Source: an uncultured Bacteroidales bacterium (GTDB lineage: Bacteria; Bacteroidota; Bacteroidia; Bacteroidales; VadinHA17). From it: 64,000 nt of DNA. Shown piece by piece: positions 20,455 through 43,267 of the stretch. The first letter of the stretch is position 1. Each line of letters begins with the position of its first letter. Made by a program: the position numbers and the translations under genes. The notes below the pieces were generated by a model. The model worked only from the letters and a program-made list of their open reading frames with translations. It was not told the DNA's origin and did no database searches. The stretch is from contig CAWEYU010000007.1 in the NCBI GenBank assembly GCA_963813405.1, forward strand, positions 4,310 to 68,309, written 5' to 3'.

Positions 20455-20649
20455 AATCAATTCAATTATTAAACAAAAATATTATTTTATATACATATAT
20501 TGTATTGCATTAATTTAATAATTGTTAATATGCAATTTTCTTGTAATTATCGATTGATATCTGATTAACTTAAGTTGCTAGTTTTAAAATTTATTATAAT
20601 TTGGACAATGACAATTTCTTCCCTTCAATATTTCTTAACCCATCCCCAA

Positions 20650-20733
20650 CCCTTCCCTTAAGCATAAGGGAAGGGAGATCTAATTAATAATCATTGGTTT
20701 ACACCCCCTTCCCTTAACCTTAAGGGAAGGGGG
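20650..20733. repeat. Two direct copies of a CCCTTCCCTTAAG...CTTAAGGGAAGGG hairpin
   Basis: H1 is cccttccctta/agca/taagggaaggg (20650-20675). H2 is cccccttcccttaa/cc/ttaagggaaggggg (20704-20733). Flanking cccatcccc and ggggatgggg are also complementary. Confidence 0.85.
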
Positions 20734-20823
20734 ATGGGGAGATGGGTTCAGAAGATATCTAAGGAGAATGCAATTTATTTGAACTAAAATATTTAATTGC
20801 AACTTGAGTTAATTAATTGCTTT

Positions 20824-27885: not shown

Positions 27886-29191
27886 ATATATATGCTTGTT
27901 TCTGTTATTGTCCCTTTTTAAACAAGGTGGTTCTCAGGTGGTCTACTCTCTTAAGGATTGCATAGGAATAGGGCTTCAAAGAAATTATTCTATACTTATT
28001 GCCCGAAATAATGAAATTATCTCAAAGAATAATTACACAATTGGAAATGCCGGTTATCTTCCGTCACTTGGTCTGACAGGCAGGTACAATGGATCCGTTA
28101 CAAATACGACCCAGAATTTCGATACCACAGGACCATATATTACCAACGGTACACAGTCAAATTCCGGCAATGCAAATATATCTCTCGGCTGGACAATTTT
28201 TGACGGGTTCAGCGTTCAGACTACATACAAAAAACTGAATGAGCTGAAACTGCTTGGTGAGCTCAATACCCGTCAGACAATTGAGAATTATATTTCGACC
28301 TTGCTGGCTGTTTATTATGGATATATTCAGCAGGTTCAGCTTGTTAATAACGAAAAATATGCAGTTACACTTTCAAAAGAGCGATTGAGAATAGATGAAG
28401 AGAGGTATTTACTTGGTTCCAATTCTAAACTGCAGGTTCTTCAATCCAGAGTATACTTTAATGCAGACAGCTCTAGTCTTTCACGTCAGATTGAGGTGCT
28501 TAGGGCAACTCAGATAAGGCTGAATGAGCTAATGGCAGTGGAAGACATGGGCGCTCAGTTCTTATTGAAGGATACATCAATAATGGTAAAACCGGATCTC
28601 ATTTATGAAAAGCTTTTTGAAGAAACACTTAAATCAAACACCGGTTTACTGATTGCTTCAAAAAACAAAACTGTCTCAAACTACGATTATAAACTGGCTG
28701 TTTCTGCTACTTATCCATACCTCGATTTTTCGGCTGGTTACAACTATACACTCAGCACTCTTTCAACAAGTTTGTATAAAAACCAGTTGACTAACGGACC
28801 AAATTATGGTTTGATATTGGGTGTTAACATATTTAACGGATTTAACACCAGAAGGCAAATTGCAAATTCTGCTATCAATAAAAAATCCACTGAGCTAAAA
28901 TACCTGGAAACAGAACAGGGTGTGAAGGCAGACCTCATAACTATTTACAATGCATATAGCAACAATTTGAGGCTTATAACCCTGCAGGAACAGAATTTTG
29001 AAACTGCGACAGAGAATCTTTCGATAGCGATGGAAAAATACAAACTCGGTAATCTTTCCGGACTAGACCTTCGTGATGTTCAGAAAAGCCTTCTGGATGC
29101 CAAAGAGAGTCTTCTTTCAGTGCAGTATCAGGCTAAACTTGCTGAAATATCCTTATTGCAGATCGCAGGACGGATAATGGAATATTACTAG
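27875..29191 (+). CDS. TolC-family outer membrane efflux protein
   Basis: ATG 27875 (MKLRYICLFLLLSL signal). Duplicated TolC-like helical/beta repeats. Overlaps the permease stop by 11 nt. Confidence 0.85.
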   Translation: MKLRYICLFLLLSLFKQGGSQVVYSLKDCIGIGLQRNYSILIARNNEIISKNNYTIGNAGYLPSLGLTGRYNGSVTNTTQNFDTTGPYITNGTQSNSGNANISLGWTIFDGFSVQTTYKKLNELKLLGELNTRQTIENYISTLLAVYYGYIQQVQLVNNEKYAVTLSKERLRIDEERYLLGSNSKLQVLQSRVYFNADSSSLSRQIEVLRATQIRLNELMAVEDMGAQFLLKDTSIMVKPDLIYEKLFEETLKSNTGLLIASKNKTVSNYDYKLAVSATYPYLDFSAGYNYTLSTLSTSLYKNQLTNGPNYGLILGVNIFNGFNTRRQIANSAINKKSTELKYLETEQGVKADLITIYNAYSNNLRLITLQEQNFETATENLSIAMEKYKLGNLSGLDLRDVQKSLLDAKESLLSVQYQAKLAEISLLQIAGRIMEYY

Positions 29192-29238
29192 GTGCAGGGT
29201 GCAGGGTGCGGTGCAGGGTGCAAGGTGCTGGGTACTGG
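29191..29238. repeat. (GGTGCAG)-type degenerate heptamer array, ~7 units
   Basis: ggtgcag ggtgcag ggtgcg gtgcag ggtgcaa ggtgctg ggtactg, starting at the TolC stop codon. Same KTGCANG family as 20039-20066. Confidence 0.8.
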
Positions 29239-29246
29239 GAGTAAAT

Positions 29247-29262
29247 CCCCCCTTGAGGGGGG
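29247..29262. repeat. CCCCCC/TTGA/GGGGGG hairpin
   Basis: Perfect 6-bp G:C stem followed by caggagggtgt. Resembles the C-run/G-run hairpins at 43311, 45332 and 46643. Confidence 0.7.
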
Positions 29263-29339
29263 CAGGAGGGTGTAATAATGAACTACTAAAAGCCTTTTTC
29301 GCAAAGAATTGAAAATTTGACCATATTGATACGAGCCTG

Positions 29340-39852: not shown

Positions 39853-41067
39853 TTACTGCTTTTTCCTTAAATTGTTTTCGATAATTTCAATTATCTGCCG
39901 GCATCTGTCATCAACCTTGTGGAAATTTAAAGTTCGTTTCTGCCCTGCTTCAGCAATTGTTTTCCTTTCCTCAGAGTTTTCCAGAAGCCATTTTACCTTT
40001 TTACCACAATCGTCAGCATTATCGTAAGTTACAATTTCTTTTTCAGTATCAAAAAGATCCGTTAAATTAGATTTATTATCAGTCAGAAGGCAACTGCCGA
40101 CTCCGGTAGCTTCAAAAAGTCTCATATTGCCGGCATAGTTACCGGCCACTTCGCCATGTATATTCAGCACTATCCCCGACCTGGCCAGCAATTGATACAT
40201 TTCCAACCCAAATACAGGACCTTGATTTGCATTCAGTAGCAGAGGATTATAATTATGCACAGGTGTTTTCAAAGACTCAAAAACCGGAGAAATTTTTTTT
40301 ACTTTCTCCAATTTCAATTTTGACAACACCTTACCTGTAAAATAGATAATTTTCTTAGCTTCAATTTTGTATCGCGTTTCAAGATTGAGGAATAAAGATA
40401 AAGGGACTTTTTCTGTTAATAAAGTTTCTATCAATTCAATCCGTTGACTGTGTACGCCATCACCCTGAAACAGCGATCCGGTAAAAACAAGACCGTTTTC
40501 CTGTTCTGAATAGCCAGTACTGATCCTCACTAATAATTCAGTGTCAAAACCATGATAAACCAGGTACGATGGAATACCATTAAACTCCAGGTCATTTTTC
40601 AGCCCGGGAGTGCATGTTATTACAAAGTCCGCCGATCTGAGTTTATTTAGTATTTCTGAATTATAAGGACTGCAGTGGTATGCAATTATTAACCTGATAC
40701 TTTTAAAATCGGTTCTAAATTTTTCAAGAAGGTTTTTATCAACAAAACGTAAATCTTCAATCCAGAGAACTTCCGGTCTGAAATGTTTCACCTGATCATA
40801 TATAACCTTCTGTTTTGATCCGCCCTTTAATCCATTTTGCTTTCTCCATTTATCCTGCAGAAAGCTATCATTATCCACAATGCATTTTACTTCAACACCG
40901 AGTCTTTTAAATGTTCTCGTATATGAGGCAACAAATTCAGTGGAATCCATCAATAAGGTATTATAATGGGTATTGTAATCAACATCCTCTAATTCAGCGT
41001 TTTGTTTATAAAATGATTCCAGATAGCCTGGATACATTGAACTAATGATCAGCAATTTAAAGCTCAT
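39853..41067 (-). CDS. Glycosyltransferase, CgeB/DUF3880-like (GT1-type C-terminal domain)
   Basis: C-terminal MRLFEATGVGSCLLTD...EIVTYDN pattern. Confidence 0.6.
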   Translation of the reverse strand: MSFKLLIISSMYPGYLESFYKQNAELEDVDYNTHYNTLLMDSTEFVASYTRTFKRLGVEVKCIVDNDSFLQDKWRKQNGLKGGSKQKVIYDQVKHFRPEVLWIEDLRFVDKNLLEKFRTDFKSIRLIIAYHCSPYNSEILNKLRSADFVITCTPGLKNDLEFNGIPSYLVYHGFDTELLVRISTGYSEQENGLVFTGSLFQGDGVHSQRIELIETLLTEKVPLSLFLNLETRYKIEAKKIIYFTGKVLSKLKLEKVKKISPVFESLKTPVHNYNPLLLNANQGPVFGLEMYQLLARSGIVLNIHGEVAGNYAGNMRLFEATGVGSCLLTDNKSNLTDLFDTEKEIVTYDNADDCGKKVKWLLENSEERKTIAEAGQKRTLNFHKVDDRCRQIIEIIENNLRKKQ

Positions 41068-41255
41068 TGACGGGATAATTTTTCAAGGAAAAGAAGAGGG
41101 TGTCTCAAAAGTTTGTTTTACCCCCCAACCTAAGGATTAGGAATCTGGGAAATAGGGAGGGATTTTAGTCGAAAACTGAATATAAAGTTCAGAAATTAAG
41201 TCTGTTACATGAGGGTGTCTCAAAAGGGCACCCTTTTTTAATTATTTAGAATTAT

Positions 41256-41289
41256 GTTCATTTCTTTTGCTCCTCCAAAAGAAATGAAC
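41256..41289. repeat. 13-bp perfect hairpin GTTCATTTCTTTT/gctcctcc/AAAAGAAATGAAC
   Basis: Read directly. Paralogous to 41682-41715. Confidence 0.85.
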
Positions 41290-41303
41290 CAAAGAAAAGG
41301 AGG

Positions 41304-41391
41304 CCGGAAATGATAACTTTGCCCTTCCACTGCGCCCGCTACACAAGCCTTTCCGCTCTACGCTCCAGGGCAAAGTTCGCGCCATTTCCGG
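41304..41391. repeat. Long interrupted hairpin (9+10 bp stems, 43-nt loop)
   Basis: ccggaaatg (41304-12) pairs with catttccgg (41383-91). aactttgccc (41315-24) pairs with gggcaaagtt (41368-77). Confidence 0.8.
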
Positions 41392-41469
41392 TTTGCCTAC
41401 GCACTCATAATTAAACACTTTAATTGTCCTAAATAGATATATTATTGGATTTCAAATGGCCTTAGAAGA

Positions 41470-41654
41470 TTTTGGGTTAAAGCAACTGTTCTGAGGCTTG
41501 CTGCGAGGGCCTTTAGTAAGCATAACTGTTTGAGGGGGCCGAGCGTTAAAAAATTGCCCTGTGGGCAATTTTAGCGAAGGAGCCAGCTTGTAGGGCTGGC
41601 CGAAGGCTGACGAGTTGTAATGCGTGGGCAAGCCTCAGAACAGTTGCCCCAAAA
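41470..41654. repeat. Nested inverted-repeat element (candidate MITE or structured RNA) with a 20-bp perfect outer stem
   Basis: gcaactgttctgaggcttgc (41482-41501) pairs with gcaagcctcagaacagttgc (41628-41647), extended by ttttggg/cccaaaa. Inner hairpins are aaaattgccc/tgt/gggcaatttt (41550-41572) and gccagc/ttgtagg/gctggc (41582-41600). Confidence 0.8.
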
Positions 41655-41681
41655 GCTTCTGAAGCCTTGATTTTTCTTTAG

Positions 41682-41715
41682 GTTCCTTTCTTTTCATCAA
41701 GGAAAAGAAAGGAAC
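41682..41715. repeat. 13-bp perfect hairpin GTTCCTTTCTTTT/catcaagg/AAAAGAAAGGAAC
   Basis: Same stem as 41256-41289 except for one compensatory base-pair change (A:T to C:G). Confidence 0.85.
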
Positions 41716-41921
41716 ATATTCTTTGGAAGAGCATACGAAAGTAAGAATAAGTAGTGAAAATCAACCACCCCGGTCGGGAGAGTAAATATTGTATATATCA
41801 GATAATCAATCGCTCCCGACCACCCCTCCTTCAAAAGGAGGGGAAATTGTTAATTATAATCTCTTATTCCCAACTCTTAAGTTGACAGCAATGGGATTGG
41901 GGGGTTAAGTCCCCCTTGTGG

Positions 41922-41941
41922 ATCCCGAAAGCTTTCGGGAT
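41922..41941. repeat. 20-nt perfect palindrome ATCCCGAAAGCTTTCGGGAT just 3' of the flippase gene
   Basis: Read directly. Related to ATCCCGCTTGCGGGAT at 43322-43337. Confidence 0.85.
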
Positions 41942-41950
41942 AGGGGTAAA

Positions 41951-43267
41951 TCATAAAAAATGGGCTTTTGAGACAGCCTCTTTAAGAGATCGTTCATATT
42001 TTGCTATAACGAATCCTATAGTTCCTGCCAGCAGAAGGTAACATACCACTTCGATAAAAACATAAACCTTTAAGAAATCGGTAAAAATCAGATTTTTGAA
42101 GAAAAGTAAAGAGCTAATGGCTAAGAAATAAAAAAATTGCCAGATACTATAGATTTTTATTTTTTGCATTGAGATAAAAACAGATGAAAATGAAGAGACA
42201 AAGAAATTCAGAACAAACGACCAGACCATAATTTTTGAAATCTCTCCCGAGAAACTATAATCATTGCCAAATACTATCTTATATATTCCTGTCCCGAATA
42301 ATAAAATGATCAGCAATTCCGCGAAACATATGGCTGTGACAACAAAAAAAACAGGTTTTAGCTCTTTTACAAAACTTTCCCGCTGTTGATATTTCTCGGC
42401 AACGCGCTGCAAAAGCACATTCGATATTGCAGTTGCAATAAAAACAAGTGGAAGTGAGAGCAATAGTTTTGAAGCATCATAATAGGCCGTATATACTGTT
42501 GAAAAAAACTTATTAATAAAGAGTGTAGGTAAGAAAAAGCTGCATGTACTCATCAAAGCAGGTATCAGATTGAATTTGGGGAAATCCGAATACTTTCTTA
42601 ATACGTACTTTAGTTTGACAGTGCTTATATATCGGAAGCTGAATCCATGCTTAAATCCCTGAGTTGTTGTAACAGCTGCGTTTGCCGATTGGCCTATGAT
42701 ATCGCTGTATATCAAACCCTTCGGATTCTTAATTAATGCAAAAAGTATCTGAAATATACCCTCGGTTCCTCTCCTTACAAATTTGTTTGATGATACCGAA
42801 AAATATTTTTTCTTCCTGATCAACCAATAGTTGAAGCACTGATATGTATTATACAAAACTACACTCAGGGGAATAAAGTATAAAATTGAAATTGGCAGTC
42901 CTGATGGAATATTCAGAAAAACAATGATCCTCTTTCCAAAGAATAGAATTACTATCAGAAGAATAAGATTGATAATGAAATTAGATAACAGAGCCAGGAA
43001 AAGAACATTAGCCGACTCTTTATCCTTTGAGGGCAGCACTATGGCATCATCATATCTTAATGAAGCGATAATGGCTATAATTGCAACGATACTCAGATAC
43101 ACCGAATAGGTACCATAGATCTCCGTTGAAATCAGACGTCTTAACAGGGGTTGAAGTAGAATAGAGATCAGCTGTGCTAAAACAGTTCCTGTAATAAGGA
43201 CTGTGGCGCTTCTGAGTAGTTCAGATCTGACAAAGTGGTTGGTAAACAGCCTGAAATCTATTTTCAT
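41951..43267 (-). CDS. Oligosaccharide flippase (Wzx, MOP superfamily)
   Basis: 438 aa, about 12 TM helices. N-terminal pattern RSATVLITGTVLAQLISILLQPLLRR is typical of Wzx. Confidence 0.8.
   Translation of the reverse strand: MKIDFRLFTNHFVRSELLRSATVLITGTVLAQLISILLQPLLRRLISTEIYGTYSVYLSIVAIIAIIASLRYDDAIVLPSKDKESANVLFLALLSNFIINLILLIVILFFGKRIIVFLNIPSGLPISILYFIPLSVVLYNTYQCFNYWLIRKKKYFSVSSNKFVRRGTEGIFQILFALIKNPKGLIYSDIIGQSANAAVTTTQGFKHGFSFRYISTVKLKYVLRKYSDFPKFNLIPALMSTCSFFLPTLFINKFFSTVYTAYYDASKLLLSLPLVFIATAISNVLLQRVAEKYQQRESFVKELKPVFFVVTAICFAELLIILLFGTGIYKIVFGNDYSFSGEISKIMVWSFVLNFFVSSFSSVFISMQKIKIYSIWQFFYFLAISSLLFFKNLIFTDFLKVYVFIEVVCYLLLAGTIGFVIAKYERSLKEAVSKAHFL

Follow-up and report, generated by a model that had tools for sequence, protein, structure and literature searches.

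A hairpin-dense gap in a Bacteroidales glycan operon as a probable stack of nested non-autonomous mobile elements

The window, a 64,000-nucleotide stretch of DNA from an uncultured Bacteroidales bacterium, contains a glycan operon on the minus strand, in which an 883-bp spacer (41068–41950) separates a CgeB-like glycosyltransferase (GT) gene (39853–41067, minus strand) from the Wzx gene (41951–43267, minus strand). A preliminary description of this DNA had placed Wzx upstream and the CgeB-like GT downstream, which was correct, the latter being a Glyco_trans_1_2 GT, and had called the spacer hairpin-dense, GC-enriched and devoid of a credible ORF. The ORF list, the GC profile and the folding of shuffled sequences all bore this out. 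No ORF of 60 aa or longer was present in the spacer, only unconserved ones of 43–59 aa, and the GC content over 41200–41700 was 0.41–0.50, versus about 0.30–0.40 for the flanking genes. The fold of the whole spacer reached −295.6 kcal/mol (z −9.9) on the minus strand and −323.6 kcal/mol (z −9.6) on the plus strand, and none of the 20 dinucleotide shuffles used as controls was as stable on either strand.

The spacer had also been thought to contain, of necessity, a terminator for the upstream genes and a promoter for the downstream ones, and this found no support. The sigma-70/terminator scan detected no strong consensus intrinsic terminator on the coding (minus) strand of the spacer, where the single terminator-like site was weak (6-bp stem at 41776–41762), and the two promoter-like matches on that strand corresponded to the chance rate. 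In the motif scan, the Bacteroidetes −7 motif TAnnTTTG was absent from the coding strand of the spacer and matched once on the plus strand. The cmscan search against Rfam 15 that had been proposed was run with E-values up to 10, and only chance-level matches to the spacer were obtained, with no family assigned; the top match scored 23 bits, where the gathering score is 60, and the lowest E-value was 0.07.

The composition of the spacer was revealed by blastn against its own genome, which gave 125 matches. Between about 41089 and 41983 no base was single-copy, and about 97% of the spacer was dispersed-repeat DNA, present in 5 to about 85 copies in the 3.5-Mb genome. The features are as follows (TIR, terminal inverted repeat).

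41068–41093, minus strand: native unique DNA, the sole remnant upstream of the GT start codon (single-copy in blastn against the own genome)
41094–41130, no strand assigned: left arm of the outermost element, E0, with an IS1182-type TIR AAGAGGGTGTCTCAAAAG at 41094–41111 (94% pairing with 41965–41982)
41126–41893, plus strand: 768-bp transposase-less IS4-type cassette (MIC/MITE-like) in the C-rich core of E0 (colinear with C6:110658–111467)
41126–41210, plus strand: R1, left-end module of the cassette family (about 20 copies, 81–96% identity)
41211–41252, plus strand: IS1182-type left-end hairpin with T-run (GAGGGTGTCTCAAAAGGGCACCC TTTTTT), dyad 41212–41240 (identical to the left end of IS-B)
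41253–41298, plus strand: R2 terminal hairpin 1, dyad 41256–41289 (inverted and direct repeat with 41673–41718)
41304–41391, plus strand: R2a, covarying stem-loop, dyad 41304–41391 (homologous to the 5' leader of the IS1182-family element IS-B)
41458–41666, plus strand: R2b, long hairpin, dyad 41470–41654 (alone in other species)
41542–41597, plus strand: R3, 56-bp mini-hairpin in the R2b apical loop (duplicated GGCCG flanks at 41537–41541 and 41598–41602)
41679–41718, plus strand: R2 terminal hairpin 2, loop ATCAAG, dyad 41682–41715 (repeat and terminator scans)
41738–41893, plus strand: R4, module at the right end of the cassette (copy number 50 to about 85)
41894–41983, no strand assigned: right arm of E0, with palindrome 41922–41941 and TIR 41965–41982 (92% identity to the arm at C14:354180–354256)
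41951–41983, minus strand: last 10 codons of Wzx (KEAVSKAHFL) and stop codon, encoded by E0 (tail alignment; E0 boundary at 41982/41983)

All eight dyads listed in the preliminary description were found, and each maps to the ends or the cargo of an element.

The same junction was compared in relatives. The order GT4–Wzx–GT is kept in seven congeneric genomes, in which the distance from the Wzx stop to the GT start is −4 to 68 bp, and the spacer is therefore foreign to the design of the glycan locus. Directly abutting sub-clusters in relatives had been named in advance as one part of what would speak against a special role of the spacer, and on this comparative side Wzx and GT do abut in all seven. 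The orthologous junction of these congeners thus lacks the conserved equivalent that an insulator or a terminator–promoter region would be expected to have.

The outermost layer, E0, also provides the end of the Wzx gene. The alignment of the Wzx tail with the seven congeners ends at a conserved YExSL(K/R) motif, and the codons beyond the boundary listed above belong to E0. Intact E0 copies occur elsewhere in the genome at C14:354179–354352 (174 bp) and C14:455303–455441 (139 bp). E0 and IS-B, an IS1182-family element of the same genome, each have the sequence AAGAGG(N2)GTCTCA at their two ends; the IS-B transposase is 514 aa long and scored 451 bits with NF033551, for which the cut-off is 270. 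From these equal TIRs, E0 appears to be a MITE derived from an IS1182-family element. Other IS1182 copies were ruled out as parents, as their ends differ. No clear target duplication was seen around the copies of E0 or IS-B.

Inside E0 lies the IS4-type cassette. Its intact twin, C6:110658–111467, is 810 bp long and bounded by CATAGCC...GGCTATG. The window cassette is colinear with this twin and carries the right TIR CTTAAGTTGACAGCAATG at 41876–41893, but it lacks the left terminal 9 bp, CATAGCCGT, which precede R1 in other copies, and its target duplication is unreadable for this reason. R4 contains the hairpins 41772–41821 and 41823–41843 (CCCCTCC...GGAGGGG), and inverted R4 pairs flank DUF559 genes in other copies. 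IS-D, of the IS1380 family, was excluded as the parent; it is itself inserted in the loop of a CCCCTCC hairpin.

The cassette belongs to a family with 70 TIR ends and 30 strict TIR pairs of 147–1140 bp in this genome. Target duplications of 9–11 bp, at C/G-rich targets, were found in 13 of the 30 pairs. The cargo was a DUF559 gene in 18 pairs, an IS200-like Y1 gene in three and R2 in one, and the remaining eight had no recognised ORF. The TIR fits the end signature of the IS231 subgroup, CAT-------AA--TAA---, for which direct repeats of about 10 bp are described (PMC2266710). It is present in 40 of 73 congeners, patchily and with bursts in a few. Two congener elements, L155 of 1595 bp and L153 of 1615 bp, are autonomous; both have the same TIR as the cassette and an IS4 transposase with the YREK motif, and both transposases scored above the NF033592 cut-off. 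In L155 the TIR is a perfect one of 19 bp, CATAGACGTCAACCTAAGG, and the transposase, 407 aa long, shows Y(2)R(3)E(6)K. The cassette thus has its TIRs in common with autonomous IS4-family ISs, which places it in this family. Such partners were found only in congeners. The 92%-complete assembly of the present genome gave no match to the IS4-family transposase model NF033592, and none of its 12 PF01609 matches was an IS4-type element with the cassette ends. Since no IS4-family transposase was found in this assembly, the present-day mobility of the cassette is unproven; the cassette would have been mobilised in trans by a transposase outside the current assembly.

The cargo of the window cassette is the composite R2. 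It is preceded by the IS1182-type hairpin at 41211–41252, which scored as terminator-like on the plus strand only, and standalone R2 copies in congeners begin with terminal hairpin 1. R2a is 83.5% identical to the leader of IS-B in this genome and lies directly 5' of IS-B-type transposases in three congeners. Among 22 R2a sequences, 96.4% of the cells were paired, with double changes in 20 of 33 pairs, and the covariation score was 0.478, against 0.107 at most in slid controls. R2b has perfect 20-nt arms (41482–41501 and 41628–41647) and a hypervariable tip; in 27 sequences, 97.6% of the cells were paired and 23 of 50 pairs showed double changes. The long hairpin is strand-specific, with 71 G-U cells against four A-C cells on the plus strand. 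R3 was absent from the R2b loop of C6:110658–111467 and four other R2 copies, which have the empty site GGCCG-T-AGGCC, and filled this site in six copies; R3 copies of 85–96% identity are spread over the genus. A hairpin nearly identical to terminal hairpin 2, TTACTTTCTTTTG-CTTGAT-CAAAAGAAAGTAA (the same loop on the other strand), adjoins R2 or R4 in other copies and was the insertion site of IS-A three times, each with a 6-bp duplication. IS-A (569 aa, distantly IS1182-like) was thus rejected as the parent, having its own TIRs and 6-bp duplication within a hairpin loop beside R2 or R4; it is a later guest.

Neither R2a nor R2b had a conserved open frame or third-position/codon periodicity. 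Their folds are supported by covariation, which speaks against a reading of the whole insert as mere debris, since selection for structure acts on parts of it. One possibility, which we regard as rather unlikely, is that R2a and R2b are functional single-stranded structures (RNA or ssDNA) carried as cargo, with hairpins that direct later insertions or regulate transposition.

Taken together, the spacer is very probably a lineage-specific stack of nested non-autonomous mobile elements rather than a module that regulates the glycan operon. Of the options named in the preliminary description, a graveyard of small palindromic elements was the right one, in that the dispersed-repeat DNA, about 97% of the spacer, is arranged as nested MITE and cassette insertions. 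The layers piled at this one intra-operon site number at least four and come from two IS families, IS1182 and IS4. We infer the following order of events. E0, as an IS1182-type MITE, would have entered the 3' end of wzx, replacing the last codons and supplying a new stop. A transposase-less IS4-family (IS231-like) cassette of about 0.8 kb would then have entered the C-rich core of E0, presumably already loaded with the composite cargo R2, made of R2a and R2b with R3 in the apical loop of R2b. The hairpins of the spacer represent terminal and subterminal structures and cargo of the inserted elements. Loops of hairpins and their C/G-rich arms recur in this genome as landing sites for the next element, and this repeated targeting would explain the stacking. 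The genes downstream of the insert may still be expressed by read-through.

It is conceivable that the spacer, or R2a and R2b within it, encodes a functional structured RNA through which the glycan operon is processed, insulated or regulated in antisense. The very strong folding of the spacer, the compensatory covariation of both modules, which is well above that of slid and shuffled controls, and the excess of G-U over A-C in R2b, which points to a single folded strand, are in line with such a role. However, the same modules recur at 10–20 unrelated places in the genome and, in other species, lie between genes that are unrelated, and they are missing from the orthologous junction of the seven congeners. 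In addition, R2b prefers the strand that runs antisense to the operon, R2a forms the leader of a transposase gene of the IS1182 type, and Rfam gave no match. We therefore consider this role very improbable. The suggestion of one or more structured RNAs in the preliminary description holds in so far as both folds covary, but both belong to mobile elements.

The inner arrangement could alternatively be an artefact in which repeat copies were collapsed or chimerically joined during assembly, as the metagenome-derived assembly consists of 16 contigs at 92% completeness and has repeat copies at contig ends, e.g. C8:1–433. Against this, both flanks are syntenic with the seven congeners, which indicates a non-random join, and the two E0 arms are correctly placed, one on each side. 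An intact copy elsewhere, independent of this one, is colinear with the interior, which also has private substitutions, with 94–97% identity to the nearest copies. An artefact is thus given hardly any weight. Bacteroidales glycan loci use invertible promoters, and the 94%-complementary inverted repeats of 18 bp (41094–41111/41965–41982) bracket the whole spacer; nevertheless, the idea that they bound a phase-variation switch whose inversion controls the genes downstream can practically be dismissed. These repeats are the TIRs of a MITE family, which has intact copies of 139 and 174 bp elsewhere, and those of an IS1182 element as well. No Bacteroidetes-type promoter was found on the coding strand, the single −7 match on the opposite strand is not kept in other R2a copies, and the site is internal to the operon, not at its head.

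Read as a stack of mobile elements, the spacer has consequences for annotation: a long structured gap in a polysaccharide operon should be checked for repeats and against relatives before it is taken for a regulatory element. A glycan operon can be split, and the C-terminus of its flippase rewritten, by mobile elements that so far leave the downstream ORFs intact, and it is plausible that surface glycan expression comes to vary through such operon-splitting insertions. The insertions repeatedly hit hairpin loops and C/G-rich sites beside or within hairpins, and two covarying non-coding modules, R2a and R2b, were brought to light as candidates for RNA or ssDNA structures.

The window cassette has its family and its terminal repeats in common with the DUF559 cassettes of the same genome; the window copy carries the non-coding R2 module instead of the DUF559 gene. 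Among known systems, the mobile insertion cassettes MIC231/IS231 of the Bacillus cereus group (Chen et al. 1999; De Palmenaer et al. 2004; both as cited in PMC2266710) are likewise transposase-less cassettes with IS4-family ends and unrelated passenger DNA, and they resemble the present family in the CAT..AA..TAA end signature, the target duplications of about 10 bp and the target-site preference. The present family differs in its passenger DNA, which is, depending on the copy, a DUF559 nuclease gene, a Y1 gene of the IS200-like type or a non-coding module with structure. Its cognate transposase was not found in this genome, and it resides in a genus of Bacteroidales, while reports of the IS231 subgroup come almost only from B. 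cereus s.l. The locus adds a Bacteroidales case to these modular cassettes, previously thought to be nearly confined to that group.

REP/BIME mosaics with RAYT transposases (PMC3733652) are also built of small palindromic modules, and this genome has tandem hairpin arrays (C13:6480–6700) and IS200-like Y1 genes. However, the modules here are larger, and the target duplications and long TIRs indicate DDE transposition. The REP/RAYT reading was ruled out, since the Y1 genes at C14:32200–33279 and their relatives have other hairpins on their flanks (GTCAACCCC..GGGGTTG) and themselves sit as cargo in IS4-type cassettes. Bacterial MITEs, including nested ones as in Porphyromonas gingivalis (PMC4596501, PMC5771137), are similarly short, non-coding, TIR-bounded, multi-copy and mostly intergenic, with long hairpins and an origin from resident ISs. 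The present stack differs from them in the depth and the mixed family origin of its layers at a single intra-operon site, and in the rewritten 3' end that one of these layers has given to a gene.

In the window, 883 bp separate the gene for a CgeB-like glycosyltransferase (GT) from that for a Wzx-type flippase. The preliminary description of this spacer as a GC-enriched gap lacking a credible ORF was borne out, as its ORFs were of 43-59 aa only and the GC content at 41200-41700 was 0.41-0.50, against ~0.30-0.40 in the adjoining genes. All eight of the dyad symmetries listed earlier were also found. The predicted folding energies were -295.6 kcal/mol for the minus strand (z = -9.9) and -323.6 kcal/mol for the plus strand (z = -9.6), both relative to dinucleotide shuffles. 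The genes and the nested elements are as follows.

39853-41067, minus strand, CgeB-like glycosyltransferase (Pfam Glyco_trans_1_2)
41094-41130 and 41894-41983, E0, the outermost MITE, with ends AAGAGGGTGTCTCAAAAG and CTTTTGAGACAGCCTCTT
41126-41893, cassette inside E0; the 810-bp element at C6:110658-111467 is an intact, colinear counterpart
41253-41718, R2, cargo of the cassette, with similar A/T-rich hairpins at both ends
41304-41391, R2a, module of R2
41458-41666, R2b, long hairpin of R2, plus-strand fold preferred, found alone in many species
41542-41597, R3, 56-bp hairpin element in the hypervariable apical loop of R2b, with GGCCG duplicated on both sides
41951-43267, minus strand, Wzx-type flippase (Polysacc_synt families)

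The spacer gave 125 matches in the organism's own 3.5-Mb, 16-contig genome. In a finer blastn search of this genome, every base from ~41089 to 41983 was multi-copy (5 to ~85 copies), and the unique DNA of the spacer was limited to 41068-41093. No other repeat block in the 64-kb window comes near it in size; 20557-20819 and 29188-29273 are two more multi-copy blocks, for which the genome gave up to 81 and 70 matches, respectively. Of 18 sampled congeners, 17 had matches to parts of the spacer, and outside the genus there were hardly any. The gene order GT4 (WecA-like)-Wzx-CgeB-like GT is kept in seven congeneric genomes, whose proteins are 47-72% identical to those of the window. The preliminary description expected the spacer to hold the terminator of one glycan sub-cluster and the promoter of the next. 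This view was not supported, because the sub-clusters abut in these seven relatives, with only -4, 18, 43, 43, 50, 52 and 68 bp between the stop codon of Wzx and the start codon of the GT.

Intact E0 copies of 174 bp (C14:354179-354352) and 139 bp (C14:455303-455441) were detected. The E0 termini also bound IS-B, a 514-aa element assigned to the IS1182 family (NF033551, 451 bits; cut-off, 270), and from these identical termini E0 is an IS1182-type MITE. At C9:99240 and C5:80114, too, its C-rich core is broken by members of the cassette family described below. The Wzx tails of relatives stop a few residues past the conserved YExSL(K/R) motif, and in the window the final ten Wzx codons (KEAVSKAHFL) and the Wzx stop codon fall within E0. 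Elsewhere in the genome, an IS-B copy has inserted just past the 3' end of a tRNA-like sequence (C4:53520-53590), and a C-rich repeat of ~60 bp is directly duplicated on the flanks of a 509-aa IS1182-family element (C9:95130-97140).

The intact 810-bp element is bounded by CATAGCCTTCAACTTAAG...CTTAAGTTGACGGCTATG. In the window cassette the right terminus is present (41876-41893), and the left-most 9 bp are gone, at a point where the cassette and E0 share a CAACC microhomology. The genome has 70 cassette termini and 30 strict TIR pairs of 147-1140 bp, with 9-11-bp target duplications in 13 of these pairs, e.g., GGTCACGCCC, CCTTTGAAGG and CCCCCTGCCC. Of the 30 pairs, 18 enclosed a gene for a DUF559 Vsr-like nuclease, three an IS200-like Y1 gene and one R2, and eight had no recognised ORF. 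The cassette terminus matches CAT-------AA--TAA---, and the direct repeats are of ~10 bp; such ends characterize the IS231 subgroup of the IS4 family (PMC2266710, Table 1), the subgroup from which modular elements with passengers and the MIC231 cassettes are known (PMC2266710). No IS4 transposase was found in this genome's assembly. Autonomous partners with the same termini were present in congeners, i.e., one IS of 1595 bp, of which there are three identical copies, with a 19-bp perfect TIR and a 407-aa transposase containing the Y(2)R(3)E(6)K motif, and another of 1615 bp. The distribution of the terminus is patchy: it was present in 40 of 73 congeners, a few of which show bursts. Among the ~32 DUF559 loci in the genome, many of them decayed, C11:139099-141126 is a tandem of four DUF559 (PF04480) matches with ~573-bp spacing. 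IS200-like Y1 (HUH) transposase genes are carried by IS4-type TIR cassettes at C14:32200-33279, C14:49508-50589 and C3:229458-230597. Each gene has its own pair of flanking hairpins, GTCAACCCC..GGGGTTG, and the arrangement is that of a RAYT-like unit inside a cassette of the DDE type.

Standalone intergenic R2 copies of 410-460 bp, with 70-80% identity, occur in other species. R2a and the upstream hairpin (41211-41252) are 83.5% identical to the left end/5' leader of IS-B in the same genome, and R2a immediately precedes IS-B-type transposase genes in three congeners. In 22 R2a sequences, 96.4% of cells were paired, with compensatory double changes in 20 of 33 pairs and a covariation score of 0.478, against 0.107 or less for slid controls (0/500 shuffles). 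In 27 R2b sequences, 97.6% of cells were paired, with double changes in 23 of 50 pairs. On the window plus strand, G-U cells numbered 71 and A-C cells 4, and therefore the selected R2b fold is that of the operon's antisense strand. Neither R2a nor R2b had a conserved reading frame, codon periodicity or an Rfam match. A tandem array of ~67-bp units of A/T-rich TTTCTTTTC..GAAAAGAAA hairpins, BIME-like in appearance, was seen at C13:6480-6700.

R3 is filled in six R2 copies of the genome, and five have the empty GGCCG-T-AGGCC site; therefore, it arrived ahead of the most recent rounds of copying. R3-like copies from many species throughout the genus share 85-96% identity, far above the conservation of the other modules. 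The R3 stem shows a compensatory change (TTGCCC/GGGCAA versus TAGCCC/GGGCTA).

In this genome, insertions have repeatedly used hairpin loops and C/G-rich sites, the latter often hairpin arms. R3 lies in such a loop, and the IS4-type cassettes duplicated CCC/GGG-rich sites, several in or beside C/G-rich hairpins. IS-A, a distant IS1182/ISNCY-like element (569 aa, TIR GAGTCCACTCTAAAAAG), was inserted three times, in either orientation and each with a 6-bp duplication (C14:16826-18647, C13:7210-9030 and C14:420040-421866), into hairpins of a single type adjoining R2 or R4, the right-end module of the cassette; the site was the six-base CTTGAT/ATCAAG loop each time. An IS1380-family element occupies the loop of a CCCCTCC hairpin at a cassette end. 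From these cases, we infer that the hairpins themselves may draw the next insertion.

On the coding (minus) strand of the spacer, a consensus scan gave a single terminator-like site, which is weak, and no Bacteroidetes-type -7 motif was found. The strong hairpin-plus-T-run sites point in the opposite direction. Downstream, the glycosyltransferase ORFs are undamaged and can be aligned with relatives over their full length. The nearest insert copies are 94-97% identical, and thus the insertion is probably fairly recent. Read-through expression of the downstream genes is plausible.

The closest known systems to the spacer are the MIC231/IS231 mobile insertion cassettes (PMC2266710) and bacterial MITEs, with the Porphyromonas gingivalis MITEs among them (PMC4596501, PMC5771137), and the spacer belongs with this kind of element and is not a new kind of regulatory region.
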